IMG/VR virus record: IMGVR_UViG_3300045988_012637
Coordinates: 1 to 36,330 of that record
Source of the DNA: a virus
Strand: one strand, 5' to 3'
Length of the DNA stretch: 36,330 nt
Shown here: positions 14,897-36,330 of the stretch, piece by piece
How positions within the stretch are numbered: the stretch's first letter is position 1
How the letters are laid out: each line of letters begins with the position of its first letter
Notes under the pieces: model-generated
The model's input: the letters and a program-made list of their open reading frames with translations, nothing else
What the model was told of the DNA's origin: nothing
The model's database searches: none
Position numbers and translations under genes: made by a program

Positions 14897-15182
14897 CGTG
14901 CTAGACCCTCTTAGGGACGCGTACGGCAAACCGATCCGGGTTAATAGCGGATATAGATCACCCGCACTAAACGCGGCGGTGAAGGGCTCTAAAACGTCGC
15001 AGCACATGAAGGGGCAAGCGGCGGACATAACAGGGGGTAGCAAAGCGGAAAATAAGAAACTCTTTGAACTGGCACAGGAACTCAATCTGCCTTATTGTCA
15101 GCTTATCGATGAGAAGAATTTTTCATGGGTGCATATCTCATACGATAAGAACAATGTGAAACGTCAAATACTGCACCTATGA
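14784..15182 (+). CDS. endolysin, peptidase M15 family (D-Ala-D-Ala carboxypeptidase/VanY-like zinc peptidase)
   Basis: SGYRSPALNAAVKGSKTSQHMKGQAADI (H-x6-D zinc motif) plus a downstream WVHISY histidine. The N-terminus FTIQELTAS..A is typical of the family. Confidence 0.8.
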   Translation: MRNFTIQELTASTTAVAKKINNDPTPEAEESLKQLVNNVLDPLRDAYGKPIRVNSGYRSPALNAAVKGSKTSQHMKGQAADITGGSKAENKKLFELAQELNLPYCQLIDEKNFSWVHISYDKNNVKRQILHL

Positions 15183-15766
15183 AAATAACATTAAATAAGA
15201 TATTGGTGTGTTTAGCGGTCCTTCTAGCCATTTTATTGTACGCGTCGTATAAGACAGTACAAAAACAGAGAAGAGAGCTAGAAAGGCAGGAAAACAACAT
15301 CACTGCGCTTAACGCCGAGGCCGTAGCGTTCAAGACTACGGCGGGTGATTATGCGGAACAGGCTAGACAGTTAAGACTAGAGAAGGACGAGCTGGAACTA
15401 TATAACGCCGATCTATATAATAAGGTACGCGAGGCAGGAATAAAGATAAGGGAGCTTAAGAACGCGACGCGTGCCGAGACAGTTACCAAGGTGGACACTG
15501 TGGTTAAGACAGAATACCGGGACGGGAACAAAGAAAGCCGATTCGCCCACTACTTCGACGGATGGAATGATATACAAGTTGATTCTAAACCGGACACCAC
15601 AATTATAAAATCTAGCAGTACCGACACGATCGACGTGATCGGATCAGTCAGGCAAAAGCGGTTTTTATTCTTTCGGATCGGAAAACCGAAACAAACTATA
15701 ACCGTATCGAATAAAAACCCAAAATCTAAAATACACGTAGAATTCTCGGCAGAATTCGACAAATAA
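15179..15766 (+). CDS. spanin-like lysis accessory protein (N-terminal TM helix plus coiled coil)
   Basis: ILVCLAVLLAILLYA membrane anchor followed by a heptad-rich region (QRRELERQENNITALNAEA..LRLEKDELELYN). ATGA overlap with the endolysin gene. Confidence 0.45.
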   Translation: MKITLNKILVCLAVLLAILLYASYKTVQKQRRELERQENNITALNAEAVAFKTTAGDYAEQARQLRLEKDELELYNADLYNKVREAGIKIRELKNATRAETVTKVDTVVKTEYRDGNKESRFAHYFDGWNDIQVDSKPDTTIIKSSSTDTIDVIGSVRQKRFLFFRIGKPKQTITVSNKNPKSKIHVEFSAEFDK

Positions 15767-15816
15767 TGCCTTTCATCTTTCACAAACGTCCTTTCATCTT
15801 TTACACTTGAAAACTT

Positions 15817-15847
15817 AAAACGCTGATTCATAACGAGTTGGCGTTTT
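15817..15847 (+). terminator. possible terminator hairpin after the lysis genes (AAAACGC...GCGTTTT followed by T)
   Basis: 7-bp stem, 17-nt loop, T-rich 3' arm and tail. The tail overlaps the -33 TTTG of the next promoter. Confidence 0.35.
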
Positions 15848-15878
15848 TGCTTGTCAATTATTAAAATTTGTATCTTTG
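15846..15878 (+). promoter_or_regulatory. strong Bacteroidota-type promoter P-A1 (-33 TTTG, 21-nt spacer, -7 TATCTTTG)
   Basis: Matches the TTTG / TAnnTTTG consensus. 27 nt (ATTAAAATTTGTATCTTTGACACTTAA) are identical to 32003..32029. Confidence 0.7.
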
Positions 15879-16078
15879 ACACTTAATTCACTAATAACTA
15901 GTACTTTATCTATTGATATATATCATTTGTAAAAGATGGAAAGATGTTATATAGAGCTAAGAATGAAATAGTAATATAATCTATAATATATGTAAATATA
16001 TGAATTAATATGTGAATGAATTTATAGAAATATTTAAATATAAACTAATAGGGAAACTATGTTTCATCTTAGACATTT
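15860..16078 (+). other. copy A of a paralogous promoter / conserved leader / AT-rich core / 3' box element (candidate cis-regulatory RNA, sRNA or origin-like DNA element)
   Basis: Collinear with 32003..32232. The two share blocks at identical spacing and an A/T core of 109 vs 112 nt. No conserved ORF. Confidence 0.5.
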
Positions 16079-16093
16079 CACCCGTTTTTGCCA

Positions 16094-16122
16094 CTTAACT
16101 AGCTGATACGCAATTAGTTAAG
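16094..16122 (+). terminator. hairpin CTTAACTA-(13 nt, GCTGATACGCAAT)-TAGTTAAG, a member of a three-hairpin family
   Basis: 8-bp perfect stem with no U-tract. The loop shares TGATACGC with the hairpin at 24014..24043, and the stem shares TTAACTA with the hairpin at 31752..31803. Confidence 0.35.
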
Positions 16123-16226
16123 GGTGGAAAGACCCGCTTAAAAAGGGGTATTTGTCATTGACACTGTTACTAAACCTTCAAAACCGTTAAACAGAGTTAA
16201 ATTACTAAAGTTTTTTGGGAAATAGT

Positions 16227-16256
16227 TTTGTAGTCCAAAATAAAGCCGTATCTTTG
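16227..16256 (+). promoter_or_regulatory. promoter P-A2 (-33 TTTG, 18-nt spacer, -7 TATCTTTG) for the replication module
   Basis: Consensus boxes are present. The upstream block CTAAAGTTTTTTGGGAAA is repeated at 24058, and AAAATAAAGC before the -7 box is repeated at 18791. Confidence 0.6.
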
Positions 16257-16470
16257 TAACATCGAAAGAGAAATGAGAACCCCGCCAATCGTAACCAAAG
16301 GGGGCTAGAAGGGAAACACGGACGGTATCCCAATTCATTTGAAAAGACGGTGCGGTATCCGCTTAATTGAAGCTATAAAGCCAGAATCTCAATCGATAAA
16401 ACAACTGAAAAGCCTACTAAATTTGTTGAACTATTCCGAGATCGGAGAATCGTTTTAAACATTACTAGAT

Positions 16471-16803
16471 ATGGCAGCAATAGACATTTATAAGTTAGAA
16501 GCGTTCTTTTATAAGATTATACGGGAGAGGATTACAGCGTGCAAAACGATAGGCGAGGCTACAATGCTATACGGCTATCCGGGCAACTCGAAAATGGTGT
16601 TCGACGATTTGCAACGAGAAGAAGAAGAAGCCGGAAAAAAGTTTAAGTATAAAATCCGGGGCTTTATAATTCCACACGCCAAACGTTACGAAACCATTTT
16701 CGAACAGGCCCGGCGCGCCGCTTATTCCGATCACGTACAAACTTATCGAACGTCTGACAAATTGAGTTTTAAATTTAATGAAAAGATGAAATGGAAAAAG
16801 TAG
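16471..16803 (+). CDS. hypothetical protein (110 aa), first gene of the replication module
   Basis: ATG ORF; no motif recognised. Confidence 0.5.
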   Translation: MAAIDIYKLEAFFYKIIRERITACKTIGEATMLYGYPGNSKMVFDDLQREEEEAGKKFKYKIRGFIIPHAKRYETIFEQARRAAYSDHVQTYRTSDKLSFKFNEKMKWKK

Positions 16804-16970
16804 AACTTATCACAGTGGCGGAAGCCGCCCGGTTAGCGGAGTGCACCGAAAACGCAATACGCTACCAGCTCAACGCCGGAAAGCTCACACGGTACGAGAA
16901 CGGAACGGGCAAAATCAGAGTGAGCAAAAACGAACTATTAGAAACAATTTTTAATTTTAAGAAAAAATGA
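16791..16970 (+). CDS. small helix-turn-helix DNA-binding protein (excisionase/MerR-like HTH), 59 aa
   Basis: Hand translation gives MEKVELITVAEAARLAECTENAIRYQLNAGKLTRYENGTGKIRVSKNELLETIFNFKKK. The pattern [IV]T..EAA..L....ai.y....G.l is typical of HTH_17-type domains. It overlaps both neighbours, with ATGA at its 3' end. It is below the ORF-track length cutoff. Confidence 0.6.
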   Translation: MEKVELITVAEAARLAECTENAIRYQLNAGKLTRYENGTGKIRVSKNELLETIFNFKKK

Positions 16971-17581
16971 AAGTAGTAATCGAATTAATCGGAAATGAGA
17001 GTAAAGAATCTTTGTTAGCAACATCTAACTATTTACGTGAATTGGCAGGGGGCGTTTTGCCTGTACCAACGGAAGCCAAAGTTCATGACCCGAACTATGA
17101 GGCAAAGCCTCTGAACGTTGAAGCAGCAAAAACCGACCTCGATAAGTTGGCGGACGCGGTTGTAGAGGCAACAAAGGTGAAGGACGAAGAGAAGCCTAAA
17201 ACAGTTTCCGAGATGGTGGAATCTGAACGCGCCAAGACACGCGCTAGGCGTGCCGTGAAGCCTGCAGAGGTTGAAGAGCCTGCAGAGGTTGAAGAGCCTG
17301 CACCGGTTGAAGAGCCTGCACCGGAAAAAGTGAAAGAAGAAGCTCCCGCACCAGTGGAAGAACCTGCAAAGGTAGAAGAACCTGCAAAGGTAGAAGAACC
17401 CGAAACGGATGCAGCATCTTATACTATTGATGATTGCAAGACTTATGCGATGAAGGCACTAAACGCGAAGAAACGCCCGATTGTACAAGAAGCTTTTGAA
17501 AGCGTAGGCGCTTCCAGTTTCCCGACGTTGAAGGAGGAAATGTTTAACGATTTTGTTGCATACATTTCAAGCCGTCTATAA
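16967..17581 (+). CDS. hypothetical protein with a central acidic Pro/Glu/Val repeat linker
   Basis: ATG ORF joined to neighbours by ATGA and TAATG. Central PAEVEEPAEVEEPAPVEEPAP...EEPAKVEEPAKVEEP. Confidence 0.5.
   Translation: MKVVIELIGNESKESLLATSNYLRELAGGVLPVPTEAKVHDPNYEAKPLNVEAAKTDLDKLADAVVEATKVKDEEKPKTVSEMVESERAKTRARRAVKPAEVEEPAEVEEPAPVEEPAPEKVKEEAPAPVEEPAKVEEPAKVEEPETDAASYTIDDCKTYAMKALNAKKRPIVQEAFESVGASSFPTLKEEMFNDFVAYISSRL
17261..17400 (+). repeat. in-frame tandem repeats: ~3.5 x 18 bp (CCTGCAGAGGTTGAAGAG family), then 2 x 18 bp (GAAGAACCTGCAAAGGTA)
   Basis: Read directly from the sequence. Confidence 0.85.
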
Positions 17582-18780: not shown

Positions 18781-18810
18781 TTTGAAGTTTAAAATAAAGC
18801 GATATCTTTG
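18781..18810 (+). promoter_or_regulatory. promoter (-33 TTTG, 18-nt spacer, -7 TATCTTTG) upstream of the SSB gene
   Basis: Consensus boxes lie in the 106-nt intergenic gap. AAAATAAAGCGATATCTTTG parallels AAAATAAAGCCGTATCTTTG at 16237. Confidence 0.6.
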
Positions 18811-18850: not shown

Positions 18851-19432
18851 ATGAGTAGAAAATTGATCTTAAAAAACGTGCGTTTCTCTTATGTAAGAGT
18901 TTTCGAGGCAGAACAATTCAACGGAGTAGGTGACTTCCATTACAGTGTTGTTCTTCTGATCCCAAAAACTGACGTCGCCCTGGTTAAGCAAATCAACGAT
19001 GCGGTAAAGGCGGAAGCACAGGACTATTTTTCAAGGGACCCCAAATTCAAGGGACGTGTACCGGAAAATTACAAAAGCCCGTTAAAGGATGGCGACGCGC
19101 CAGAAAAAGAAGGGCAAGCCGGATTTGAAGGTATGTACTACATCACAGCGAAAAGGAAAGAGGAACACGGGCAACCGATCGTAATTGACAAAGGTAAACG
19201 CCCTATCACAGCGAAAGAGGATATGTATTCCGGATGTTGGGGAGTAGCTTCCATTTCAATCTACGGTTACAACATGAGCGCCGACAACCGCGGTATAACC
19301 TCCGGATTGAATGGAATTCAGAAGGTAACTGATGACGATAGACTGGACGGCGGATCAAGCGTCAACGACTTCGAAGATTTGAGTGATGAAAACGATGACC
19401 CGTTTGGAATGAACGAAAAATTACCATTTTAA
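18851..19432 (+). CDS. DUF2815-type single-stranded DNA-binding protein
   Basis: N-terminus LKNVRFSYVRVFE and an acidic C-terminal tail (DFEDLSDENDDPF). The canonical position is between the DUF2800 nuclease and DNA polymerase A. Confidence 0.65.
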   Translation: MSRKLILKNVRFSYVRVFEAEQFNGVGDFHYSVVLLIPKTDVALVKQINDAVKAEAQDYFSRDPKFKGRVPENYKSPLKDGDAPEKEGQAGFEGMYYITAKRKEEHGQPIVIDKGKRPITAKEDMYSGCWGVASISIYGYNMSADNRGITSGLNGIQKVTDDDRLDGGSSVNDFEDLSDENDDPFGMNEKLPF

Positions 19433-19557: not shown

Positions 19558-21558
19558 ATGAAACCAATTTATATAGATTTTGAAACTTATTCAAGCGAGG
19601 ACATTAAGAGCGGCGGCGCGTACAGATATACGCAATCGCCCGACTTTGAGATACTCCTTATTGGATACGCAGTCGGCGCAGGACCCGTTCATATTGTTGA
19701 TATGACGGGCGTAGATGCCTACGAGCGGTTTACGGACTTCGTGACCTTGATACTAGACGAGCAATATACGATCGTAGCGCACAACGCGCAGTTTGAACGG
19801 TTGTGTTTGATGGCATACGGTATCAACATTCCCGCGGAACGTTTCCTATGTACCGCGACTATGGCGTTATACGCCGGATTCCCTGAAAGTTTGGGAAATC
19901 TTTCTAAAGCCCTCGATCTGAAAGAGGGCAAAAAGGGCACAGGGCTAGCCCTTATAAAATTCTTCTGCCAACCACAGAAGCCGACTAAGGCGGACCCGGA
20001 AGGGTACCGGAACGATCCGAGAGATTATCCGGAAAAATGGGAAGAGTTTATAGACTACCTACGTTATGATATTCTTTCAGAACGTGAAGCGCAGGCACGC
20101 CTAGACTATTGCAAGTTCCCGCAGTCGGAGATAGACCTGTACCGGCTGGATCAAGACATTAACGACAACGGCATAGCCGTGGATATGGAACTAGCCGAAC
20201 GCGCGGACGCTCTGAACGAGGAATTTTGCAACGAATTGAAAAACCGTATTAAAACTAAGTACGGTATATCCTCTCTTAAGTCTACAATGCAACTAAAGGA
20301 CTTTGTAATGATCCAAACCGGAAAGTCTTTCGATTCGTTCCGGAAAGAGGACATAGAGCAGATTATGCAGGAGTGCGACAACGAACGAGTAGACGAAGTA
20401 CTAAACGCCCGGAAGATCATAAACAAGACTAGTAACGCCAAATATACAGCGATGCGCAACTGTGTGTGCTTCGATGGACGTGTACACGGCTTATATAGAT
20501 TTTATGGCGCGGGCCGTACTGGCAGATGGGCGGGTAGACTAGTCCAGATGCAGAATTTGCCGCGTAACTACATACACGACCTTGACGGCGCGCGTGATAA
20601 TGTTAAACACATGTGTTTGGCAGACTTCGAAACGTTTTGGGGGAATGTACCTGACACGTTATCGCAGCTTATCAGAACAACGTTTGTAGCTCCAAAGGGA
20701 ACTATATTCCATATCGCCGACTATTCAGCCATTGAAGCCCGTGTACTGGCGTGCCTGTGTCGCGAGGAATGGCGTATTGAAGCGTTCCGCAACGGGAAAG
20801 ATATTTATGTAGTGTCTGCAAGTATGACATTTAGTTTGCCCGAAAATCAATGCGGCAAAGGTACTCATTACCGCCAACAAGGTAAAGTGACCGAGCTAGC
20901 CCTAGGTTATGGCGGTTGGGTAGGTGCTATGTCTACGATGGACTACGAGAACGCAATTGACCCGGCATTATACAAGGATATTATATTGAGATGGCGTGCC
21001 GCCTCTCCACGAATAGTTGAGTTTTGGGAGGAGCTGGATAGCCGTGCAAAACTCTGTATCAGGAACAAGAAAGACGTGGAGGTTATCCGGTACGGTGTAC
21101 ACGTTTGTACATTTCAATGGTTTAAAGAAAACAATTCTCTAGCAATTTTATTACCTTCGGGCCGTCGTTTGTTTTATCCGTTTTGCCGGATTGCTACGAA
21201 AAGCGTGCATGGACGAGATCGAGAGGTTATAACATACAAGGGTCAGGACTTAACCGGAAAATGGGCGGACCTTGACACGTATGGCGGAAAGCTAACCGAA
21301 AATATAACGCAGGCAGTCAGCCGTGACTTATTGGCATACGGCATGCAAGAGATTGTAAAACGTTACCCGGCTGTTAAAATTGTGGGGCATATCCATGATG
21401 AGACGGTAAACGAAACGCCCTTAGATGATTTTGGCGAGCCAACCGTGTCACTTAAAGAGATTTGCGAAGCTATGGCAGCCACGCCAAAATGGGCGGACGC
21501 TTTCGGGATTCCGTTGAAGGCCGAAGGGTTCACTAGTAATTATTATAAGAAAGATTAA
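19558..21558 (+). CDS. family A DNA polymerase with 3'-5' exonuclease domain
   Basis: Exo motifs: IDFETYS, HNAQFE, YLRYDIL. Polymerase motif A is IADYSAIEARVLA, motif B is RQQGKVTELALGYGG and motif C is GHIHDE. Confidence 0.9.
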   Translation: MKPIYIDFETYSSEDIKSGGAYRYTQSPDFEILLIGYAVGAGPVHIVDMTGVDAYERFTDFVTLILDEQYTIVAHNAQFERLCLMAYGINIPAERFLCTATMALYAGFPESLGNLSKALDLKEGKKGTGLALIKFFCQPQKPTKADPEGYRNDPRDYPEKWEEFIDYLRYDILSEREAQARLDYCKFPQSEIDLYRLDQDINDNGIAVDMELAERADALNEEFCNELKNRIKTKYGISSLKSTMQLKDFVMIQTGKSFDSFRKEDIEQIMQECDNERVDEVLNARKIINKTSNAKYTAMRNCVCFDGRVHGLYRFYGAGRTGRWAGRLVQMQNLPRNYIHDLDGARDNVKHMCLADFETFWGNVPDTLSQLIRTTFVAPKGTIFHIADYSAIEARVLACLCREEWRIEAFRNGKDIYVVSASMTFSLPENQCGKGTHYRQQGKVTELALGYGGWVGAMSTMDYENAIDPALYKDIILRWRAASPRIVEFWEELDSRAKLCIRNKKDVEVIRYGVHVCTFQWFKENNSLAILLPSGRRLFYPFCRIATKSVHGRDREVITYKGQDLTGKWADLDTYGGKLTENITQAVSRDLLAYGMQEIVKRYPAVKIVGHIHDETVNETPLDDFGEPTVSLKEICEAMAATPKWADAFGIPLKAEGFTSNYYKKD

Positions 21559-21563
21559 TTAAC

Positions 21564-23954
21564 ATGGAAAAATACACTTTATCACTTGCGGGTTCTTCGG
21601 CTTCATTGAAGTGGAAGTCCGTACGTATGACCTGGGAAGCATTTTTGGAAAGACTAGGAACGCCAGTTATCACTAACGAAACGGTACGCGAGTTCGATAG
21701 ACTGGACAAGCCCGCTAAATCGTCTTTGAAGGACGTAGGCGGATTCATGGCTGGCGAGTTGTCTGGCGCTCAACGCCTTAAGAAGGCCGTTATGTCCCGT
21801 TCGATGATTACATTAGACGTAGATTTTGGGGACGATCTTTTCCCGTTCGATTTTGCGGATCGTTTTCCAGGTGTGGCGGCAGCTATTTATACCACTAGAT
21901 CAGACCGTCCCGGATCGCGCCGTTACCGTCTTATCATGCCGTTTAAAGAAGAAGTTACAGACGTTACTATGTACGAAGCCGCGGCGCGTAAAGTAGCCGA
22001 GTTGTTAGGTATCGATTTATTCGACAAAACAACGTTTCAGCCGGAACGTATGATGTACTGGCAATCTCTTTCCAAAGATCAAACCGGACTATTCGAAGTG
22101 TTCGAAGGCGAACCGATCAGCGCGGAGTATCTCGTAGGTTTGTACGGAGACAATGAAGAATGGCGCGACGTGCGCAAATGGGCATTCCATTCAGAGGTAG
22201 AACGTGATACCCGCGCCGTTATTAGTAAGGAGATGGCGAAAGACCCCCGCGATAAAGAAGGTTTGGTAGGCGCGTTTTGCCGCTCGTACACCATCCCCGA
22301 AGCCATAGAGAAATACTTGTCAGACGTTTACACGGAGGTAGACAACGGACGGTACACCTACGCACTTGGATCGGGCGCGGCTGGCCTAGTTGTGTACGAC
22401 GATGTACTGTGTTTTTCCCACCACTCAACCGACCCTATTGGAGACGGACACGCTTATAACGCTTATGATTTGGTACGTGTGCACAAGTTCGGACACCTAG
22501 GCAAGGAAGACAGTACCCGCGAGATGAACAAGCTAATTTGCGCGGATAAAGAGTGCGTTAAGGATATGGTAGCCGTGGACGATGATCTAGCTGACTTTGA
22601 AGAATACACGGACGATGTTAAGAGCGACGCGCAGACCGCCGCCGAGCTTGTTTGGGACTTAGATCGCAAAGGTGATAAATTGTGTACCGTTCGCAACTTC
22701 GTTAACGCTTTCAAGTGTGATCCGCTATTAAATGATCTATTAGCTTACGACTTGTTTCTCGATACGATCGTGTACACCCGTACGCCGTTCTTCTCGAAGG
22801 ACATAAAGAAGGGTGATATGTTGGACGACACAGCTGTAGCAATTATCCGTGGACGCATTGAGGATTTGCACGGTATTTATAATGACAGCAAATTAAACGA
22901 CGCGCTGGAAAAGGTTTGCAGCGAAAACGCTTTCCATCCTATCAAGAAGTACCTGGAGGCACTAAGATGGGACGGCGTGAAACGGATAGATAATTTCCTG
23001 GTCGATTACATGGGGGCAGAGCCTAACATCTACGTGTCCGAGGCGTTCCGCAAAATGCTGGTTGCCGCCGTTACTAGAGTGTACGAGCCGGGCCGCAAAT
23101 TTGATACGGCGCTTGTTATGTATTCAGGGCAGGGCGCGGGAAAGTCCACGCTTATACAGTCCCTTTCAAAAGGTTGGTTTAACGATTCGCTAACGGACGT
23201 GTCCGGGCAAAAAGCATATGAAGCGATACAACACGCCTGGATCGTGGAGCTAGCCGAGTTGTCGGCCCTTCGCCGTTCGGACGTGGAGGCTACTAAGAAC
23301 TTCATAAGCAAGCGCGAAGATACATATCGTAGTGCATACGCCCGCCGCGTCAAGACACACCGTAGACAATGCGTATTTTTCGGGTCTACTAACGACGATG
23401 AGTTTTTGAAGGACAAAACCGGAAACCGCCGTTTCTTTCCGATCGAGGTACGTGCCAACAAGAACACGCACAAGCTGTTTGAGAAGTCATTTGATAAAGT
23501 AGTAGACCAACTTTGGGCGGAAGCAATGGAGCTGTACATGTTGGGCGAAAGCCTTATCTTATCGGACGAAGCGGAAGCGATCGCTAACGAGGGACGCGAG
23601 GAATTTACAGAAGAAAGCCCACTAGTAGGTATTATAGAAAACTATGTAGATAAACTTTTCCCGGCTGACTACGAAGAGCGCACCGAACAGCAACGCGCCG
23701 ACTTCCTAGCCGGATCACTGGAAGAGATTGGGACGGTTCAAAAAAATACATTCTGTTTAATGGAGCTATGGGTAGACGCTTTGGGGCGCAAGAAAGAAGA
23801 TTATACAAGCGCGAAAGGGCGAGAACTGGCAACAGCTATGAGACAGATAGGCGGATGGTACAAGGGAAAGTTAAATAGAACTAAATTGTACGGCCGACAA
23901 GTAATTTATATCCGTAAAGGTAGCAAGGAAAGCCAAAAATTACTATCTTTGTGA
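21564..23954 (+). CDS. primase-helicase: N-terminal AEP/prim-pol-like domain fused to a VirE/D5-type P-loop NTPase
   Basis: ITLDVDFGD matches the AEP DxD motif. Walker A is YSGQGAGKSTL and Walker B is WIVELAEL. Size and position are typical of the DUF2800-PolA module. Confidence 0.8.
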   Translation: MEKYTLSLAGSSASLKWKSVRMTWEAFLERLGTPVITNETVREFDRLDKPAKSSLKDVGGFMAGELSGAQRLKKAVMSRSMITLDVDFGDDLFPFDFADRFPGVAAAIYTTRSDRPGSRRYRLIMPFKEEVTDVTMYEAAARKVAELLGIDLFDKTTFQPERMMYWQSLSKDQTGLFEVFEGEPISAEYLVGLYGDNEEWRDVRKWAFHSEVERDTRAVISKEMAKDPRDKEGLVGAFCRSYTIPEAIEKYLSDVYTEVDNGRYTYALGSGAAGLVVYDDVLCFSHHSTDPIGDGHAYNAYDLVRVHKFGHLGKEDSTREMNKLICADKECVKDMVAVDDDLADFEEYTDDVKSDAQTAAELVWDLDRKGDKLCTVRNFVNAFKCDPLLNDLLAYDLFLDTIVYTRTPFFSKDIKKGDMLDDTAVAIIRGRIEDLHGIYNDSKLNDALEKVCSENAFHPIKKYLEALRWDGVKRIDNFLVDYMGAEPNIYVSEAFRKMLVAAVTRVYEPGRKFDTALVMYSGQGAGKSTLIQSLSKGWFNDSLTDVSGQKAYEAIQHAWIVELAELSALRRSDVEATKNFISKREDTYRSAYARRVKTHRRQCVFFGSTNDDEFLKDKTGNRRFFPIEVRANKNTHKLFEKSFDKVVDQLWAEAMELYMLGESLILSDEAEAIANEGREEFTEESPLVGIIENYVDKLFPADYEERTEQQRADFLAGSLEEIGTVQKNTFCLMELWVDALGRKKEDYTSAKGRELATAMRQIGGWYKGKLNRTKLYGRQVIYIRKGSKESQKLLSL

Positions 23955-24013: not shown

Positions 24014-24050
24014 AAAGTCTTTCGTAGTGATACGCGAGACTTTATTTTTG
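24014..24050 (+). terminator. terminator-like hairpin AAAGTCT-(16 nt)-AGACTTT followed by ATTTTTG
   Basis: 7-bp stem with a T-run 1 nt downstream. The loop contains TGATACGC, shared with the 16094 hairpin. It follows the primase gene. Confidence 0.5.
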
Positions 24051-24079
24051 TTAATATACTAAAGTTTTTTGGGAAAAGT

Positions 24080-24110
24080 TTTGGTACTTCATAATTAAGT
24101 CGTATCTTTG
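24080..24110 (+). promoter_or_regulatory. promoter (-33 TTTG, 19-nt spacer, -7 TATCTTTG) with a conserved leader
   Basis: Consensus boxes are present. GTATCTTTGAAATGTCAAAAGGAAATAA plus CAATTAAAAATTA is duplicated at 25692. Confidence 0.7.
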
Positions 24111-24149
24111 AAATGTCAAAAGGAAATAAACCAATTAAAAATTAAAGAT

Positions 24150-24290
24150 ATGAAAAAGTATTATGTAAATGGAAAAGAGATCACAGAACAAGAAGCCATT
24201 GAAATTAAAACTAAAAACGCAGAATTGCAAAAGAGTACAGACCTCAATGACTGGTTAGGTATTCAATGGATAACGGAGATAAAAAAGTAA
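24150..24290 (+). CDS. small hypothetical protein (46 aa)
   Basis: The ORF-track entry 24108..24290 begins at a TTG inside the promoter -7 box. The first ATG is at 24150 (MKKYYVNGKEITEQE...). Confidence 0.45.
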   Translation: MKKYYVNGKEITEQEAIEIKTKNAELQKSTDLNDWLGIQWITEIKK

Positions 24291-25624: not shown

Positions 25625-25669
25625 CTAAGAGCATTTAATGCAAATCAAAGTTAAGAGTTTACCCTATAT

Positions 25670-25700
25670 TTTGGTAGTATGAAAAGAACCCGTATCTTTG
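25670..25700 (+). promoter_or_regulatory. promoter (-33 TTTG, 19-nt spacer, -7 TATCTTTG) with the same leader as 24103
   Basis: Consensus boxes and a duplicated leader sequence. Confidence 0.7.
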
Positions 25701-25739
25701 AAATGTCAAAAGGAAATAATCAATTAAAAATTAGAAATC

Positions 25740-26177
25740 ATGAAAAAGTTAATCAGTATTTTAGCAGTAGTTTTATTATCAGTTAGCGCAATGGCGCAAG
25801 TATCATCCGCATCAGGCGATTTAAAAACGCTTAAGTCTTTCCGCCTGGGAGCTTGTAAGATCGTGGAAGTCACGAAGGGCGACGCGGTAACGTATAAGAT
25901 CACCGGACGGCCGGTCGATACAACAACAATAGAAATGAACATAGCATTAGGGGACGCGGACGCGGCGGTTAAGACGCTCTTAAGCCTGGCCGAGTACAAA
26001 ACGTCAAGCTCTAGAGAAGTTGTAAACCTCAACAACCCCGGAGATAACGCCGCGCGATATGACAAATTTTTTGCGGGTTGGAGGATCCAAAGTCAGGGAG
26101 GGCAATTTGAGCTTCACGTCTCTAGGGGCGAACTTAAGAAGATGGCAGAAGCAATTAATAAATCTCTAAACAAATAA
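25740..26177 (+). CDS. secreted/exported protein of unknown function (145 aa)
   Basis: Classical signal peptide MKKLISILAVVLLSVSAMAQ. The gene has its own promoter. Confidence 0.6.
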   Translation: MKKLISILAVVLLSVSAMAQVSSASGDLKTLKSFRLGACKIVEVTKGDAVTYKITGRPVDTTTIEMNIALGDADAAVKTLLSLAEYKTSSSREVVNLNNPGDNAARYDKFFAGWRIQSQGGQFELHVSRGELKKMAEAINKSLNK

Positions 26178-28595: not shown

Positions 28596-29320
28596 TATAC
28601 ATGGGGAGCAAGCGGCGGATAGCCGAACAAATTTTGACCATTATATTAGAAGGTAGAAAAGATGGTCAATATTATGTAGAGCCGTTCTGCGGAGGGTGCA
28701 ATATGATTGATAAAGTGCAGGGAAATAGAATAGCTAATGATAGAAACCCGTATTTAATTGCAATGTGGGAGGCGTTATCTTGGGGGTGGGACCCACCAAA
28801 GACCATAGACAGGGAGCATTATTGCAATGTGCGGACATGCTATAACCAAAATTCGGATGAGTACCCGATGCACTATGTAGGATGGGTGGGATTTGTGGGA
28901 AGCTTTAACGGAAGGTTTTTTGACGGGGGGTATTCAGGGCATTCAGTTATGGACGCGCACGGAGGAGTTGTAGATTATATAGGCAGAGCAGTTCGTAACA
29001 TATTAGCACAAGTCCCGTTAATAGAAGGGGTTCAATTCACTAATCACAGTTATGCAGATATGAGTATCCCCCCTAATTCTATTATATATTGTGACCCTCC
29101 GTATGCGGGTGTGAAAAAATACGCGTACTCGGTAGACCACGAAAATTTCTGGGCCTGGTGCAGAGAAAAAGTAGCCGAAGGGCATGATGTGTTTGTTTCC
29201 GAATACAACGCCCCGGACGATTTCGTTTGTGTATGGGAACAAAATTTGAGAGTACTCGTTAAACCCTGTAGCGGTAAACAAGCAGTAGAGAAATTATTTA
29301 TTCATAAATCAAGAGTATGA
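28592..29320 (+). CDS. N6-adenine DNA methyltransferase (Dam/D12-class-like), orphan
   Basis: MGSKRR N-terminus, SAM motif EPFCGGCN, catalytic DPPY (IIYCDPPYAG). No adjacent restriction endonuclease candidate. Confidence 0.8.
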   Translation: MIYMGSKRRIAEQILTIILEGRKDGQYYVEPFCGGCNMIDKVQGNRIANDRNPYLIAMWEALSWGWDPPKTIDREHYCNVRTCYNQNSDEYPMHYVGWVGFVGSFNGRFFDGGYSGHSVMDAHGGVVDYIGRAVRNILAQVPLIEGVQFTNHSYADMSIPPNSIIYCDPPYAGVKKYAYSVDHENFWAWCREKVAEGHDVFVSEYNAPDDFVCVWEQNLRVLVKPCSGKQAVEKLFIHKSRV

Positions 29321-30378
29321 ATGTATTGAGTTTATTTGACGGTATGAGTTGCGGGCAAATCGCCCTGACTAATCTGGGATGCTTCCCAAATAAATACTAC
29401 GCGTCCGAGGTGGATAAGTTCGCCATACAGCAGACGCGCCACGTGTTCCCGGAAACTATCCACATAGGTGACGTTACACAGGTAGACGTATCACAGTTGG
29501 ATAAAATAGATTTGATTATAGGCGGAAGCCCATGCCAATCGTTTTCATTTGCGGGGAAACAGGCGGGGATGGCTACGACGGAGAACATAGAGATAACCGA
29601 CCTGGATCAGTATCTCGACCTTAAAATAATGGGGTTCGAGTTTACCGGGCAGTCGTACCTGTTTTGGGAGTACATGCGGATATTGACGGAAGTACGGAAG
29701 TACAACCCGGACGTGAAGTTCCTGCTGGAGAATGTGGTTATGTCGAAGAAGTGGGAAGCGGTACTAACTAACGCGATCGGAGTTGAACCCGTAATGATTA
29801 ACAGCAACCTCGTATCCGCGCAGAACCGTAAACGCCTGTATTGGACGAACATCGCGGAGATCACGCAGCCGGAAGATGAGGGTATATTCATCCGTGATAT
29901 TCTCGAGGACGACGTAGACGGTATAATAGTAGCTAGTCGGGGAAGAACTGGCACGGACGGGGTGACCCGGCAACGCCTAGAGCCGAGAACGGACGGAAAG
30001 TCGAATTGCCTCACAACGGTGCAAAAAGATAACTTGTTGGCGGTATTTAAAGAAATGAGTCCGCGGGTGGGGGGCGTGTCAATCAGCGAGAACGGAATAA
30101 GACCCCGCAGGGGAGACGCGCGGAAGTCCGGTATCGGAGAACTGGGAACTATCCGGTTTGAGTCTTCTAAAGCGGACACGCTCCTAACGAATGCGAAACA
30201 ATTGATATTAGATCAAGCCCACCGTATAAGACGGTTAACGCCTGTGGAGTGCGCGCGCTTGCAGACCGTGCCGGACTGGTACGAGTGGGCAGTGTCGGAC
30301 ACGCAGATATACCGGATGTGCGGGAACGGTTGGACGGTCAAAGTTATTGAACATATATTAAAAAATTTATTCGTATGA
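29317..30378 (+). CDS. DNA cytosine-5 methyltransferase, orphan
   Basis: Motif I LSLFDGMSCG, motif IV GGSPCQSFSFAG, motif VI LLENV, motif VIII QNRKRLYW, motif X CGNGW. Confidence 0.9.
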   Translation: MNVLSLFDGMSCGQIALTNLGCFPNKYYASEVDKFAIQQTRHVFPETIHIGDVTQVDVSQLDKIDLIIGGSPCQSFSFAGKQAGMATTENIEITDLDQYLDLKIMGFEFTGQSYLFWEYMRILTEVRKYNPDVKFLLENVVMSKKWEAVLTNAIGVEPVMINSNLVSAQNRKRLYWTNIAEITQPEDEGIFIRDILEDDVDGIIVASRGRTGTDGVTRQRLEPRTDGKSNCLTTVQKDNLLAVFKEMSPRVGGVSISENGIRPRRGDARKSGIGELGTIRFESSKADTLLTNAKQLILDQAHRIRRLTPVECARLQTVPDWYEWAVSDTQIYRMCGNGWTVKVIEHILKNLFV

Positions 30379-30632
30379 AAAAGTTAATCAATTGGTGGAA
30401 GGCGTCTAATCGCTGGAAGCATTTCTTATTTGCAATCCCGCTTGGTGCGGTGTGTGGTGCTCCGTTCACTACGGGTGTGGGTTTAGGTATGGAAGTAAAG
30501 GATCACTTATACGGCGGGAAGGCTGATTTCGTAGATTTCCTTCTAACCGCGGTCGGCGGTGTGATCGGGCACGGCGTTATGCTGGTGGTGGGGCTGGACT
30601 ATGTGATAGGGTATTTAATCGATTTAATATAA
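30375..30632 (+). CDS. small membrane protein (85 aa)
   Basis: Two or three hydrophobic segments (HFLFAIPLGAVCGAPF, FLLTAVGGVIGHGVMLVVGL). Confidence 0.5.
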   Translation: MKKLINWWKASNRWKHFLFAIPLGAVCGAPFTTGVGLGMEVKDHLYGGKADFVDFLLTAVGGVIGHGVMLVVGLDYVIGYLIDLI

Positions 30633-31205: not shown

Positions 31206-31745
31206 ATGCCGACACCATATATTAAGAAGAAACAAAGAAAAGTGCTGCTTATCGAAGATATGGCACGAGTTTATAACATTCACGCGTTTTTCATATTCAA
31301 CTGGCTTGAGGCAAACGGCGTGAAGTACGCCAAGGTGAAGGGCAAACCGTTCCACGCCGTAAATGCCGAGATATTCTGCGAGGCGATCCGGGACATAATG
31401 TACGCGGCTAGCAAGGTACGGGACGACAGGAACACCCGGATCGAACCGGAACGCATTCCGACAATAGAGAATATGCTGTACCGTGACAAGGACAAGAAGC
31501 GCGTAGGACCGTACGAGAATGACGATATAGAACGCCCGATCTATGCGAGCAAGGACACAGTTTTAAACCGTAACGGGGTGGAGGTCTCCATGTTATACAG
31601 GGTTAATATGTACTGCGATGGCAGTAGGACGCTAGACAAGTTGAACCACCGTACTTTGAAATGGGAAAACATAGAAAGGGCGGAGAAATGGAAATGTAAA
31701 GATATTTTGGACGATTGGAAGGTTCTGTATAACTTGGATTGTTAA
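31206..31745 (+). CDS. hypothetical protein (179 aa), possible DNA-binding N-terminus
   Basis: ATG ORF. The N-terminal basic stretch followed by LIEDMARVYNIHAFFIFNWLEANGV is HTH-like. It is the last gene before the late-operon control region. Confidence 0.45.
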   Translation: MPTPYIKKKQRKVLLIEDMARVYNIHAFFIFNWLEANGVKYAKVKGKPFHAVNAEIFCEAIRDIMYAASKVRDDRNTRIEPERIPTIENMLYRDKDKKRVGPYENDDIERPIYASKDTVLNRNGVEVSMLYRVNMYCDGSRTLDKLNHRTLKWENIERAEKWKCKDILDDWKVLYNLDC

Positions 31746-31751
31746 TTGGAT

Positions 31752-31803
31752 TTAACTAAAAGTCGTGTTTTCGTATAAAAACGTTAATGCGACTTTTAGT
31801 TAA
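31752..31803 (+). terminator. 14-bp perfect hairpin TTAACTAAAAGTCG-(24 nt)-CGACTTTTAGTTAA, likely a transcription stop or processing structure
   Basis: Perfect inverted repeat starting 7 nt after the stop at 31745. The loop contains an inner GTTTT/AAAAC pairing. It is followed by an A-run rather than a T-run. Confidence 0.5.
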
Positions 31804-31824
31804 AAAATTTAACGCACTTCGGAA

Positions 31825-31856: not shown

Positions 31857-31989
31857 ATGCTTGATTTTAACGGTATTTTAACTAAAAAGCCTGTTTTTGA
31901 CAAAAAAGTGGTGAAAACGTCTTTGACAACTCGATTTCATGTTTGACACCCGACCAGCTCCACAGGACGCAGAACGCGCTTTTCAAGTT

Positions 31990-32021
31990 TTTGATGTGAA
32001 AGATTAAAATTTGTATCTTTG
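31990..32021 (+). promoter_or_regulatory. strong Bacteroidota-type promoter P-C1 (-33 TTTG, 20-nt spacer, -7 TATCTTTG)
   Basis: Consensus boxes; 27 nt identical to P-A1. Confidence 0.7.
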
Positions 32022-32232
32022 ACACTTAACTTGCTTATTTATAGTACTTTATCATATAATATATACTATATGTCAAAGATGGAAAGATATATACTAGTGG
32101 ATTACATTATAAAAAGTAATAATATAGTTAACATAAATATACTATTGTATAAAAAGGATAATAAAATTATGGAAAATATTTAAAATATATCTATAGGGAA
32201 AACGTCTTTTTATCTTTCCATCGTTGACACTT
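32003..32232 (+). other. copy C of the paralogous promoter / conserved leader / AT-rich core / 3' box element
   Basis: Collinear with 15860..16078. GTCAAAGATGGAAAGATA (32072-32089) and TATCTTTCCATCGTTGAC (32211-32228) form a 17/18 inverted repeat that encloses the A/T core. Confidence 0.5.
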
Positions 32233-32318
32233 GGGCTGAAATGCCCTGTTCATCGGGGTTTGGGGGTGGAATGATGTTTTTGGTAGGTGGAAAGATGGCA
32301 ATTTGGGCGGAAAAAGAG

Positions 32319-32326
32319 TAATTTTG
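32319..32326 (+). promoter_or_regulatory. possible -7 box TAATTTTG just upstream of terS
   Basis: Fits TAnnTTTG, 22 nt before the ATG at 32349. No -33 at canonical spacing. Confidence 0.3.
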
Positions 32327-32348
32327 TAGAGTTGTAAATAAAAATTAT

Positions 32349-33038
32349 ATGGCTATAAAGAAGAAAGAAATTATAGAGACGAAGGAAGCGGTGCAGCTGC
32401 CAAAAGTCGAGAAGGTTAGGCCGGATTACGCGCACTTCCGTCTAGCTCCCACATACGCGACCACCAAGTATTTGGCGGACTCGTTCAATTACACCAAGTG
32501 CTACCAGGTCGCCACGGCGCACTTAGGTATGACGCCCATTTGGCAGGAGCCGAAGGAGCTGTGGGAGGCATACGCGATTTACTCGGCTTGGTGCGAGGCT
32601 ACGCCCGTTATAACAATGGAGGCTGTAAAGTCCGGTAACATGGCTGGAACGCTCTACGAAGTGCCGAAGAAACACCTTCAATCGGAGGGTGAGTTCTGCA
32701 TGTTTCTGGGCGCTAGCGTCAGTTATCTAAACAGGAGGCGGGCTGCATACGCCGAGAACCTGAAAGAGTTCGATCTGACGATATGCGCGGACTTTATCGA
32801 AGTGATTGATAAGATACGCGACGCCATCGCACAGGACCTCGATCAAGGTGCGACGGTGGGACAGTTCGACGCCAACTACGTTCGTGCTCTACGGGGCATT
32901 AAAACGCAGATGGACTACACTTCTAACGGCGAAGCTATCAAGGGCGGCTTGACGGTTAACGTAACCGATCCGAAAGTGCGTGCGAAGGTTAGCTCAATCA
33001 AGAACTTTAAAAAGGATCATAAAGAGGAGGAGAAATAA
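32349..33038 (+). CDS. terS: putative terminase small subunit
   Basis: 229-aa ORF directly upstream of terL and coupled to it by TAATG. The ELWEAYAIYSAWCEA segment resembles small-terminase N-terminal regions. Mostly positional. Confidence 0.5.
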   Translation: MAIKKKEIIETKEAVQLPKVEKVRPDYAHFRLAPTYATTKYLADSFNYTKCYQVATAHLGMTPIWQEPKELWEAYAIYSAWCEATPVITMEAVKSGNMAGTLYEVPKKHLQSEGEFCMFLGASVSYLNRRRAAYAENLKEFDLTICADFIEVIDKIRDAIAQDLDQGATVGQFDANYVRALRGIKTQMDYTSNGEAIKGGLTVNVTDPKVRAKVSSIKNFKKDHKEEEK

Positions 33039-35055: not shown

Positions 35056-36330
35056 ATGGGTTTAAAAAAGTATGAGATTATTACAGTAGGGAGCGACAGG
35101 AGAGTACGCGCCCTTCGTTCGTGGCAGGTGGGAGACCGTTACGTCAATATTGGCGACGTGGGCGGTATCGTGTACGACGAGAAGACATTATCGCAGGACG
35201 GCGCTTGCTGGCTGTTTAGGGGCAACTTTGGCTTTCCTGGTGCACGCATCGGCGGGGATTCGATCGTGGACGTAGCCGAGGCTGCACTAAGCGCCACAGG
35301 TGCGCCTAACGTAGACATTCTAGGGTCTAGTGTTGTGGTGGGTAGTAAATTACAATTTGAATCGGAACAGACAGAGGCGAACGCGGTGGTACTGACGGCG
35401 GCGGACTTCGAGCAGGGCACATTTGCTAGCTATGTTAAAGGTCAGAAGCTAAGAACGGTTGACTCCGCAAATTATATCAGAACTAAAAACCCTATATTTT
35501 TGGGGGGTAAGTCGTTGATTGTTAAATGTGGAATTCCGGGATTTATAATTACGGGGATTGTAACGGACGTGGACGGGCATATCTCCGACGATGAACGAAC
35601 CGTTCAAAGCAAAGACGGCGGTGCTTTAGCATTACCCGCCGGGCAGTACTTTAGTATTGTCATTACGAAAAACCCGGCAGCGGCAACAGTCCCGGCAGAC
35701 GCGACAGCCGCTCAAATCACGTTTACAGGCACTTTCGAAACTAAGCTTTCAATCATCGATTCACGTGTGGAGATCAACCCGGCGATTAGCACAGGCACAC
35801 TGACTATAAGACCGGGCGGGGTTCATACAATGGCACCCGGCAAGAAGTATCCCGAGTGTGTTATACGAAATTCTAAGGTGTCTATGATGGCGCATGCTAC
35901 GGCTAATAGGACCTTTAGAATTATGGGACAAATTATCGGATCGACTGCAACGCTAGACGGCACAACGGAAGGCATTACAACGGCCGGGTTGTATAGCAAT
36001 GTCAAGAACTTAATGATTTCGGGCATATTATCCACCGCCTTGAATGAAAAAGCGTATAGTAATATACAGGCTACCGACTGCGATAACTTCGCTGTATCAC
36101 CTACAATCTTTACAGGACGGGTAGCAGCCTTAACGGCTAACATGCCTTTCATCTTTCAAGGTTGTAACGTCCCTAATGGTATATTCTACCATCACGCGCA
36201 GATAGCCAACACTTACAAGAATATTGATTTTGTGCTGGCTCAATCTGATTTGGGTAGATCTATCGCATCCGGTGAAATACTTGCTAGTTCAGAAGTTGAA
36301 GGGATGTACCGTTTGTATTCTACAACCGGG
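35056..36330 (+). CDS. N-terminal part of the wrap-around ~800-aa fibre/beta-solenoid protein (no stop before the contig end)
   Basis: ATG at 35056, 4 nt after the previous stop. Hand translation of all 425 codons to base 36330 shows no stop. The phase matches 56..1180 across the junction. The ORF is absent from the ORF track because it lacks a stop. Confidence 0.65.
   Translation, partial: MGLKKYEIITVGSDRRVRALRSWQVGDRYVNIGDVGGIVYDEKTLSQDGACWLFRGNFGFPGARIGGDSIVDVAEAALSATGAPNVDILGSSVVVGSKLQFESEQTEANAVVLTAADFEQGTFASYVKGQKLRTVDSANYIRTKNPIFLGGKSLIVKCGIPGFIITGIVTDVDGHISDDERTVQSKDGGALALPAGQYFSIVITKNPAAATVPADATAAQITFTGTFETKLSIIDSRVEINPAISTGTLTIRPGGVHTMAPGKKYPECVIRNSKVSMMAHATANRTFRIMGQIIGSTATLDGTTEGITTAGLYSNVKNLMISGILSTALNEKAYSNIQATDCDNFAVSPTIFTGRVAALTANMPFIFQGCNVPNGIFYHHAQIANTYKNIDFVLAQSDLGRSIASGEILASSEVEGMYRLYSTTG
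36276..36330. repeat. 55-bp terminal direct repeat, identical to 1..55
   Basis: Exact identity with the first 55 bases. Confidence 0.95.

Follow-up and report, generated by a model that had tools for sequence, protein, structure and literature searches.

We analysed the IMG/VR virus record IMGVR_UViG_3300045988_012637 over its positions 1 to 36,330 (the window, meaning here this whole stretch of 36,330 nucleotides), and in particular an intergenic element termed copy C, which extends from about 31915 to 32300, together with its duplicate, copy A, which extends from about 15770 to 16170 and lies 16 kb away. Copy A is flanked by the last late gene (15179-15766) on one side and the first early gene (16471) on the other, while copy C is flanked by the last gene of the early or replication block (31206-31745) and by terS. 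The terS ATG lies at 32349, as given in an earlier prediction that was made from the sequence alone (hereafter the original prediction), and the identity of terS is backed by PHROG 606 (8e-12) and by the annotation of relatives. All of the credible genes are on the plus strand. Bases 1-55 are an exact repeat of bases 36276-36330, a 55-bp terminal overlap that is the signature of a circularly assembled contig, and the true genome size is therefore about 36,275 bp. From the computational comparisons described below, copies C and A are probably twin iteron-type replication origins of a circular Bacteroides siphophage genome of about 36.3 kb, a role that appeared in the original prediction only in the clause that named replication initiation among its grounds for refutation.

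Two intergenic elements and their iterons

The most conspicuous feature of copy C is a pair of arms at 32071-32089 (TGTCAAAGATGGAAAGATA) and 32211-32229 (TATCTTTCCATCGTTGACA), each of 19 nt, which are complementary at 18 of 19 positions (95%) with a spacing of 121 nt. These arms came out of a repeat search and are the same repeat as the 17/18 arms (32072-32089 and 32211-32228) of the original prediction. The A/T-rich interior that had been described was also confirmed, as 32090-32210 has a G+C content of 17.4% compared with 46.8% for the genome; the equivalent core of copy A (15947-16059) is 113 nt long and has a G+C content of 15.9%. When the genome was shuffled 60 times with dinucleotide composition preserved, no shuffle reached 18/19 and the best gave 17, and when the intergenic region containing copy C was shuffled 2000 times, 18/19 was reached once. 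We conclude that the inverted repeat of copy C is beyond chance.

Copies A and C have 101 nt in common at 79% identity, and it can be seen that their parts follow the same order, which bears out the two-copy feature with common architecture that had been proposed. The arms of copy A pair only partially (12/19), again as proposed, and the claim that the inverted arrangement around the A/T core has nevertheless been retained holds in the relatives. A repeat search found no third copy of the box and A/T-core element in the genome; the repeats at 24050-24159 and 25669-25749 belong to an early promoter and leader module and are not a further copy of the element.

On closer inspection, each arm consists of two copies of a box of 10-11 bp, ATCTTT(G/T)ACA(C). 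A genome-wide count with the degenerate 10-mer ATCNTTNACA gave eight matches against 0.93 expected, and all eight fall in the two elements, four in each; when one mismatch was allowed in the 11-mer, 11 of the 13 matches fell inside the two elements. On each side of the A/T core there are boxes of both orientations, and each copy has at least seven iterons. The small motifs of the original prediction could all be located (GGGGTGGAATGATG at 32263-32276, AGGTGGAAAGATGG at 32285-32298, GGGTGGAAAGAC at 16122-16133 and TAATTTTG at 32319-32326), and what had been described as GGGTGGAAAGA echoes proved to be minus-strand boxes. In relatives that carry the T variant of the box (the T class, see below), the first of the downstream boxes of copy C becomes a canonical iteron, for example ATCGTTTACACC. 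The parts of the two elements, along with the gene for the candidate initiator protein, are listed here; r2 values are for association with box class among relatives, as set out in the following section.

Copy C:
31918-31928 and 31938-31948 (31918-31948), plus strand: upstream iterons in direct orientation, CGTCTTTGACA and CATGTTTGACA, identified as pattern matches
31995-32005, minus strand: inverted iteron, identified as a pattern match
32004-32020: invariant 17-nt core, TTAAAATTTGTATCTTT; pairwise identity 0.99 among relatives
32014-32024: iteron C3, TATCTTTGACA; overlaps the invariant core and mimics a -7 promoter box in this genome
32071-32089, minus strand: left arm, double iteron TATCTTTCC + CATCTTTGACA; r2 0.88 at 32074 and 0.77 at 32082
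32090-32210: A/T core, putative DNA unwinding element; 121 nt
32211-32229, plus strand: right arm, double iteron TATCTTTCC + CATCGTTGACA; r2 = 1.0 at 32226
32233-32258: conserved G+C-rich hairpin region, GGGCTGAAATGCCC / CCCTGTTCATCGGGG; pairwise identity 0.92
32263-32298, minus strand: downstream iteron-like boxes, CATCATTCCACCCC (32263-32276) and CCATCTTTCCACCT (32285-32298)
32302-32326, plus strand: late (terS) promoter, TTTG, 13 nt, TAATTTTG; outside the putative origin; pairwise identity 0.93

Copy A:
15774-15784 and 15795-15805, plus strand: upstream iterons, CATCTTTCACA and CATCTTTTACA
15861-15877: invariant core; identity 0.97
15871-15881, plus strand: iteron A3, TATCTTTGACA
15928-15946, minus strand: left arm, double iteron, plus-strand reading TGTAAAAGATGGAAAGATG; r2 = 0.88 at each of 15931 and 15939
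15947-16059: A/T-rich core
16065-16075, plus strand: right-side iteron, CATCTTAGACA
16094-16121: hairpin with stem CTTAACTA/TAGTTAAG
16122-16133, minus strand: box GGGTGGAAAGAC, a minus-strand iteron
16154-16164, plus strand: iteron GTCATTGACAC; r2 = 1.0 at 16160

Candidate initiator:
21564-23954, plus strand: primase-helicase of PriRep type, 796 amino acids; codon 778 at 23895-23897

The invariant 17-nt core was looked for in 185,579 species genomes of bacteria and archaea and was not found, which gives no indication that a host or satellite carries a copy. At the right edge of each A/T core there is a conserved motif, ATAGGGAAA (32193-32201 in copy C and 16048-16056 in copy A).

Concerted box variants and the primase-helicase

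The closest relatives of this phage are the Bacteroides siphophages BO1, BKR1, the BK687P / BK735P / BK745P series and BO668P, each of which has both copies and is 82-89% identical over the region studied here. They have been placed in group 3 of the proposed 'Bacteroiduroviridae' (PMC12694917). Copy C was aligned from 25 IMG/VR relatives and copy A from 29, and about 50 related phages were considered overall. Between 25 and 30 close relatives retain the layout in which iterons surround an A/T core, and the clustering and architecture of the boxes are conserved in four clades. In the clade whose helicase is 87% identical, the two elements have seven and eight perfect copies of ATCTTTTACA. The 70% and 68% clades have boxes of their own (ATCTGTGACA and ATCTATTACA, respectively) and they keep, at the positions of copies A and C, two copies of an element of their own of about 390 bp (identity about 70%). 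In a clade that is more distant again, TTACACAGAC repeats lie at the position of copy A, and a search of the most distant clade for a second copy with the iteron pattern found only the copy A site. As for the A/T core, a 100-nt stretch of 10-16% G+C is present in every relative, while its sequence identity of 0.71-0.82 (0.71 for copy C) is below the genome mean of 0.85, indicating drift that is faster than average. With composition held and sequence drifting in this way, the core appears to behave like an unwinding element.

The boxes of the relatives fall into a G class with TTGACA (arm GTCAAAGATGG), a T class with TTTACA (arm GTAAAAGATGT) and a rarer ATTACA form, and each genome has a single variant in all of its boxes, whatever their orientation. 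Thus the G/T positions at 31925 and 31945 switch together with all of the other boxes, and the variant at 16160 in copy A is the same as that at 31945 in copy C in 21/21 genomes for which both loci are available. To set this agreement against the genomic background, 35 genomes were mapped onto the coordinates of this genome and 7,966 informative sites were compared with box class. The median r2 was 0.04 and the 99th percentile 0.34, and only ten sites had an r2 of at least 0.7; eight of these are box positions, and the primase-helicase gene holds the remaining two (23006 and 23896, the latter in codon 778). Since the median r2 is only 0.04, linkage can be excluded as the cause of the agreement between copies. 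Gene conversion of the whole element was likewise considered and rejected, as the identity of copy A to copy C is 0.811 within genomes and 0.807 between genomes.

The primase-helicase is encoded in the early block, which also contains genes for a DUF2800 nuclease, an Enc34-type protein binding single-stranded DNA (SSB; 18851-19432), the family A DNA polymerase PolA (19558-21558), a VRR-NUC protein and an SNF2 helicase. Its N-terminal 345 amino acids are labelled primase by PHROGs, and amino acids 464-682 form a VapE-like superfamily 3 (SF3) helicase domain (Pfam VapE-like_dom, 1.3e-76). Residues 386-711 match PDB entry 7PDS at E = 6.8e-74, and this entry is the Rep1 helicase of the Staphylococcus aureus pathogenicity island SaPI1 (PMC9371898); the protein is accordingly an SF3 helicase of the VapE/Rep family, as an initiator of this type should be. 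A C-terminal winged helix is predicted at amino acids 700-796 (23661-23951). In an AlphaFold2 model the C-terminal 97 amino acids (pLDDT 77) adopt the topology H-b-H-H-b-wing-b, with a recognition helix at 749-762 and residue 778 at the end of the wing loop, and the best-ranked Foldseek matches to the C-terminal domain were mostly winged-helix domains, including three 7pds chains. A homologue search with the C-terminal 130 amino acids alone returned only fragments, and the structure model is therefore based on a shallow alignment of 16 sequences.

We also scanned all 43 proteins, with approximately 2,900 informative positions, for covariation with box class at the protein level. The top-ranked position was residue 778 of the primase-helicase, in the motif KLYG-x-QV (r2 0.74). 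Arginine is present at this position in 10/11 G-class genomes, and alanine, glutamine or valine in 20/21 T-class genomes (Fisher p = 1.8e-6; family-wise permutation p = 9/300). The C-terminal domain has two haplotype backgrounds, and the combination of Arg778 and G-boxes occurs on both. When the resulting prediction was tested on 14 isolates, GAC boxes were found in 11/11 phages with arginine and in 0/3 of those without (Ala, Ser and Ser; p = 0.0027). In the 87% clade residue 778 is threonine and all 15 iterons are ATCTTTTACA, and in the 68% clade it is alanine and all iterons are ATCTATTACA; both clades have T-boxes only. A wing arginine that switches with a guanine would fit direct readout of the base.

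Other residues and proteins were examined in the same way. Amino acids 756 and 762/763, in the predicted recognition helix, gave r2 values of 0.46-0.54 with other box positions, but these are confounded by clade and were not relied upon. Five other candidate box binders were rejected, with maximum r2 values of 0.19 for a 59-amino-acid helix-turn-helix protein (16791-16970), 0.26 for the 110-amino-acid first early protein, 0.35 for a 204-amino-acid protein, 0.31 for TerS and 0.23 for a 179-amino-acid protein encoded upstream of copy C.

If the elements are origins, a plausible course of events would be as follows. Early transcription from the conserved promoters would make the primase-helicase, the C-terminal winged helix of which would recognise the iterons, with wing residue 778 reading the variable seventh base. 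Self-loading SF3 hexamers would then assemble in opposite orientations on either side of the A/T core and melt it, the N-terminal primase domain would prime synthesis, and the fork would be handed over to the phage PolA and the Enc34-type SSB. We infer physical binding, melting and origin firing; both copies may fire, or, by analogy with P4 crr or the SPP1 oriR fork barrier, one of them may act as an auxiliary site instead.

A number of observations weigh against twin origins of this kind. The covariation concerns a single residue, and two genomes of the discovery set depart from it, namely IMG/VR contig 035735, which has alanine with mostly G-boxes, and contig 038600, which has arginine with T-boxes. 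The family-wise p in that set is just about 0.03, and the genomes are phylogenetically related, with some of the isolates being near-duplicates. In the 70% clade residue 778 is proline and GTGACA and ATTACA boxes coexist, and the rule linking residue to box is therefore not a simple code. For the C-terminal domain Foldseek gave weak matches (best E-value 0.03), and the confidence of the structure model is medium. The elements do not adjoin the initiator gene, as the origins of SaPIs do. Finally, some transcription across copy C is possible, because iteron C3 forms a complete Bacteroides promoter consensus in this genome.

Two further features of the hairpin regions were seen. The motif CTGAWACGC is common to the hairpin loops of both copies (16102-16110 and 32236-32244), and both it and ATAGGGAAA can be recognised in diverged relatives; possibilities for these motifs include a priming site or a site for a host factor. 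In one relative, IMGVR_UViG_3300045988_038600 (L008), the hairpin segment GAAACGCCCTGTTCATCGGGGTTTC (aligned to 32240-32262) is present as its exact reverse complement, and this is also one of the two genomes that depart from the pairing of Arg778 with G-boxes.

Competing explanations for the elements

The original prediction had raised the possibility that copy C acts as part of an RNA. In the leader reading considered here, a promoter at 31990-32021 (P-C1) would give the late operon a 5′ leader of about 320 nt, in which the stem formed by 32071-89 and 32211-29 would regulate read-through or the translation of terS and the structural genes. It can be seen that TTTG-N20-TATCTTTG does match the Bacteroides promoter consensus in this genome (sigma-ABfr, -33 TTTG and -7 TAnnTTTG), and that the 323-nt RNA folds better than shuffled sequences (z = -3.25), with the inverted repeat forming a stem. 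That z-score, however, is accounted for by the inverted repeat itself and is without comparative support. The -7 box is intact in just 3/20 relatives, both for P-C1 (32014-32021) and for its twin in copy A (15871-15878), and the last base of the -7 box is the variable iteron base in relatives; by contrast, the other promoters are intact in all covered relatives (early promoters 20/20, 13/13, 20/20 and 19/19, and the terS-proximal promoter 20/20). The compensatory changes that had been proposed as a check on pairing were not borne out, as the complementarity of the arms is 12-19/19 among the relatives for copy C, with 12-16/19 in many of them and an imperfect stem in most, and averages 12.5/19 for copy A, while boxes that do not pair, either because they are in direct orientation or because they lie in the other copy 16 kb away, share the changes and co-vary just as tightly. 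Moreover, conservation within the element is lowest in what would be the interior of the loop, and the box variant tracks a residue of a DNA helicase. An Rfam scan of the whole genome at gathering thresholds gave no match, and the two intergenic regions, when scanned at E <= 1, yielded nothing beyond a chance snoRNA match. We therefore regard a leader role as very improbable.

The same comparison revises the view of the terS-proximal box TAATTTTG, which had been called weak; TAnnTTTG is intact at this position in all 20 relatives, and the conserved promoter at 32302-32326 is likely to be the start of the late operon. Its spacing of 13 nt between TTTG and TAATTTTG is short compared with the 18-21 nt or so of the early promoters, and this may reflect the need for an activator, or dependence on replication. 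The early promoters belong to a module, TTTG-N18-TATCTTTG with a similar leader sequence after each promoter, which is distinct from the iteron element and precedes four early units (16196-16268, 18781-18810, 24050-24159 and 25669-25749). The early 5′ untranslated region at 16262-16470 has an unremarkable fold (z = +0.57). It contains a stem-loop, CCCC-GCCAATCGTAACCAAAG-GGGG (16278-16306), for which there was no Rfam match; the 70% and 87% clades conserve the 17 nt of its loop, and its stem shows a compensatory change (GCGCC/GGCGC in L150). This stem-loop is part of a segment of about 130 nt (16275-16405) that is present in about half of the close relatives.

A role in DNA packaging had also been raised for copy C. 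In this case the boxes would be recognition repeats for TerS, forming a pac site just 5′ of terS, and the element does lie directly upstream of that gene. The pac sites of headful phages are often in or near terS. In addition, the GenBank record of BKO1-1 starts about 35 nt upstream of the first box, although this start may be the depositor's choice. Set against this, a full second copy of the element is found 16 kb from terS, at the start of the early block, and inverted iterons around an A/T core are the layout of an origin. Among the residues of TerS none follows the box variant (maximum r2 0.31), whereas a residue of the primase-helicase does, and the records or contigs of most relatives break not at the element but at about 17.3 kb, in a tandem repeat. 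We consider it highly unlikely that the element is a pac site. A further explanation is that the boxes serve only as operators, bound by the winged helix of the primase-helicase or by another regulator that controls the downstream promoters, with replication starting elsewhere. Each copy is indeed 40-70 nt 5′ of a conserved promoter (16227-16256 and 32302-32326) that heads a large gene block, and many iteron-plasmid initiators repress their own transcription through iterons. An operator would not, however, need a core of 113-121 bp with 10-17% G+C and opposed flanking sites, which is the hallmark of an unwinding element; the putative binding protein is a homologue of self-loading helicases; and the genome was found to have no further site combining repeats and an A/T core that could be an origin. 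A role confined to that of operators is thus unlikely, but origins can serve as operators too, and the elements may well have this added function.

Some other features of the genome were recorded during this work. The open reading frame at 16967-17581 contains an 18-nt tandem repeat, AGCCTGCAGAGGTTGAAG, in five copies (17259-17404), and many IMG/VR contigs and GenBank records of relatives start or stop near it; as these record ends near 17.3 kb fall in a tandem repeat, we take them to be assembly breaks and not physical termini. A terminator-like hairpin at 31751-31804, 3′ of the open reading frame at 31206-31745, has two alternative alleles in relatives, TAACTAAAAGTCG...CGACTTTTAGTTA and GGGGTTAA...TTAACCCC, each of which is self-complementary. 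The methyltransferase region (about 28600-30400) is swapped among relatives, which have Dam, Dmt, other genes or none at this position, and it barely aligns, with just five informative sites in 29-30 kb. The genome scan found no tRNA or tmRNA. The GC/AT skew profile is dominated by the single coding strand and is therefore uninformative on origins.

Relation to known origins and significance

By homology and layout the closest system is the Rep/iteron origin of the SaPIs. SaPI Reps are self-loading helicases with a C-terminal winged helix that recognises iterons, and the origins contain 6-12 iterons and an A/T-rich centre, with at least two iterons per side in opposite directions (PMC9371898). 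The phage protein is homologous to the SaPI initiator over residues 386-711, has a primase fused to the helicase as in SaPI5 PriRep5, and has a predicted C-terminal winged helix. The SaPI arrangement of short iterons in opposed directions on both sides of an A/T-rich centre (PMC9371898) is found here too, with at least seven boxes per copy and opposed double iterons, 32071-89 on the minus strand and 32211-29 on the plus strand, flanking the core of copy C. In both systems iteron sequence and C-terminal domain appear to be matched variant by variant, which in the present case is judged from covariation. There are also differences. A SaPI has a single origin immediately downstream of rep, whereas here there are two copies, at about 16.0 and 32.1 kb, which lie 5.6 kb upstream and 8 kb downstream of the gene at 21564-23954, and for this reason we file the elements under a Rep-type-like origin of variant arrangement. 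The iterons are 10-11 bp long here compared with 5-6 bp in SaPIs, the C-terminal domains have no detectable similarity in sequence, and the replicon is a virulent-looking Bacteroides siphophage as opposed to a Gram-positive satellite.

The alpha protein of P4 also combines in one polypeptide a primase, an SF3 helicase and, at its C-terminus, a winged-helix domain for origin binding, and the same domain binds two separate iteron clusters, ori and crr. The P4 primase is of the DnaG/Toprim type, and crr, which is about 4.5 kb from ori, is not a copy of it and does not have the same unwinding-element layout; the two loci described here, on the other hand, are paralogous copies with the same complete architecture. 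Primase, SF3 helicase and winged helix are an architecture common to P4 alpha and pRN1 ORF904 (PMC2777425).

For the twin arrangement itself the nearest parallel is SPP1, likewise a siphophage, which has two similarly organised origins, oriL and oriR, each with repeats and an A/T-rich unwinding element; on the circularised genome some 13 kb separate the two, an intergenic region of the late genes holds one of them, and a single phage protein binds both (PMC6316719). As in a bipartite origin, the exact box matches of the present genome (8/8) lie in two loci and the variant is identical between them in every genome compared (21/21). The systems differ in that the SPP1 initiator gp38 is unrelated and requires a separate loader, gp39, and a DnaB-type helicase, gp40, and in that oriL is inside gene 38 and oriR has been proposed to act as a fork barrier and in this way to make theta replication give way to sigma replication (PMC6316719). 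Resemblances extend beyond phages to the SF3 helicases of eukaryotic viruses.

SV40 large T antigen and the E1 protein of papillomaviruses each form a pair of hexamers that unwind in both directions, although their origin-binding domain is of another fold, their origins are compact (about 64-100 bp) and their hosts are eukaryotic. Both of these helicases bind inverted sites next to an A/T-rich segment (see also PMC9894130).

A full-text literature search on iteron origins of replication in Bacteroides phages found no paper, and the paper that describes this phage family does not discuss non-coding elements (PMC12694917). Twin origins as proposed here would supply both the cis and the trans parts of the replicon for an abundant family of human-gut Bacteroides phages. 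They would be a second example, with an unrelated initiator, of the SPP1-type twin-origin layout, and the pairing of a wing arginine with a guanine would be a natural case of initiator/iteron co-evolution that can be read from sequence. The boxes ATCTTTGACA become predicted protein targets, and possible uses include plasmids that depend on the phage, protection of starter or therapeutic strains by origin titration, and improved annotation of the two long 'empty' stretches between genes in this family of phages. Because each copy is directly 5′ of a promoter that heads one of the two gene blocks (early or replication, and late or structural), it is conceivable that transcription is coupled to replication. 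We put forward, as a tentative and rather doubtful extension, that firing or occupancy of the elements couples both gene blocks to replication, and that the presence or absence of arginine at residue 778, together with the G/T and ATTACA iteron variants, defines natural replication-specificity groups among co-circulating gut Bacteroides phages. If such groups exist, an initiator would be kept from firing the origins of a co-infecting relative, or from being titrated by them, and phages would thereby have a counterpart of the incompatibility groups of plasmids, one that could be read from the sequence.

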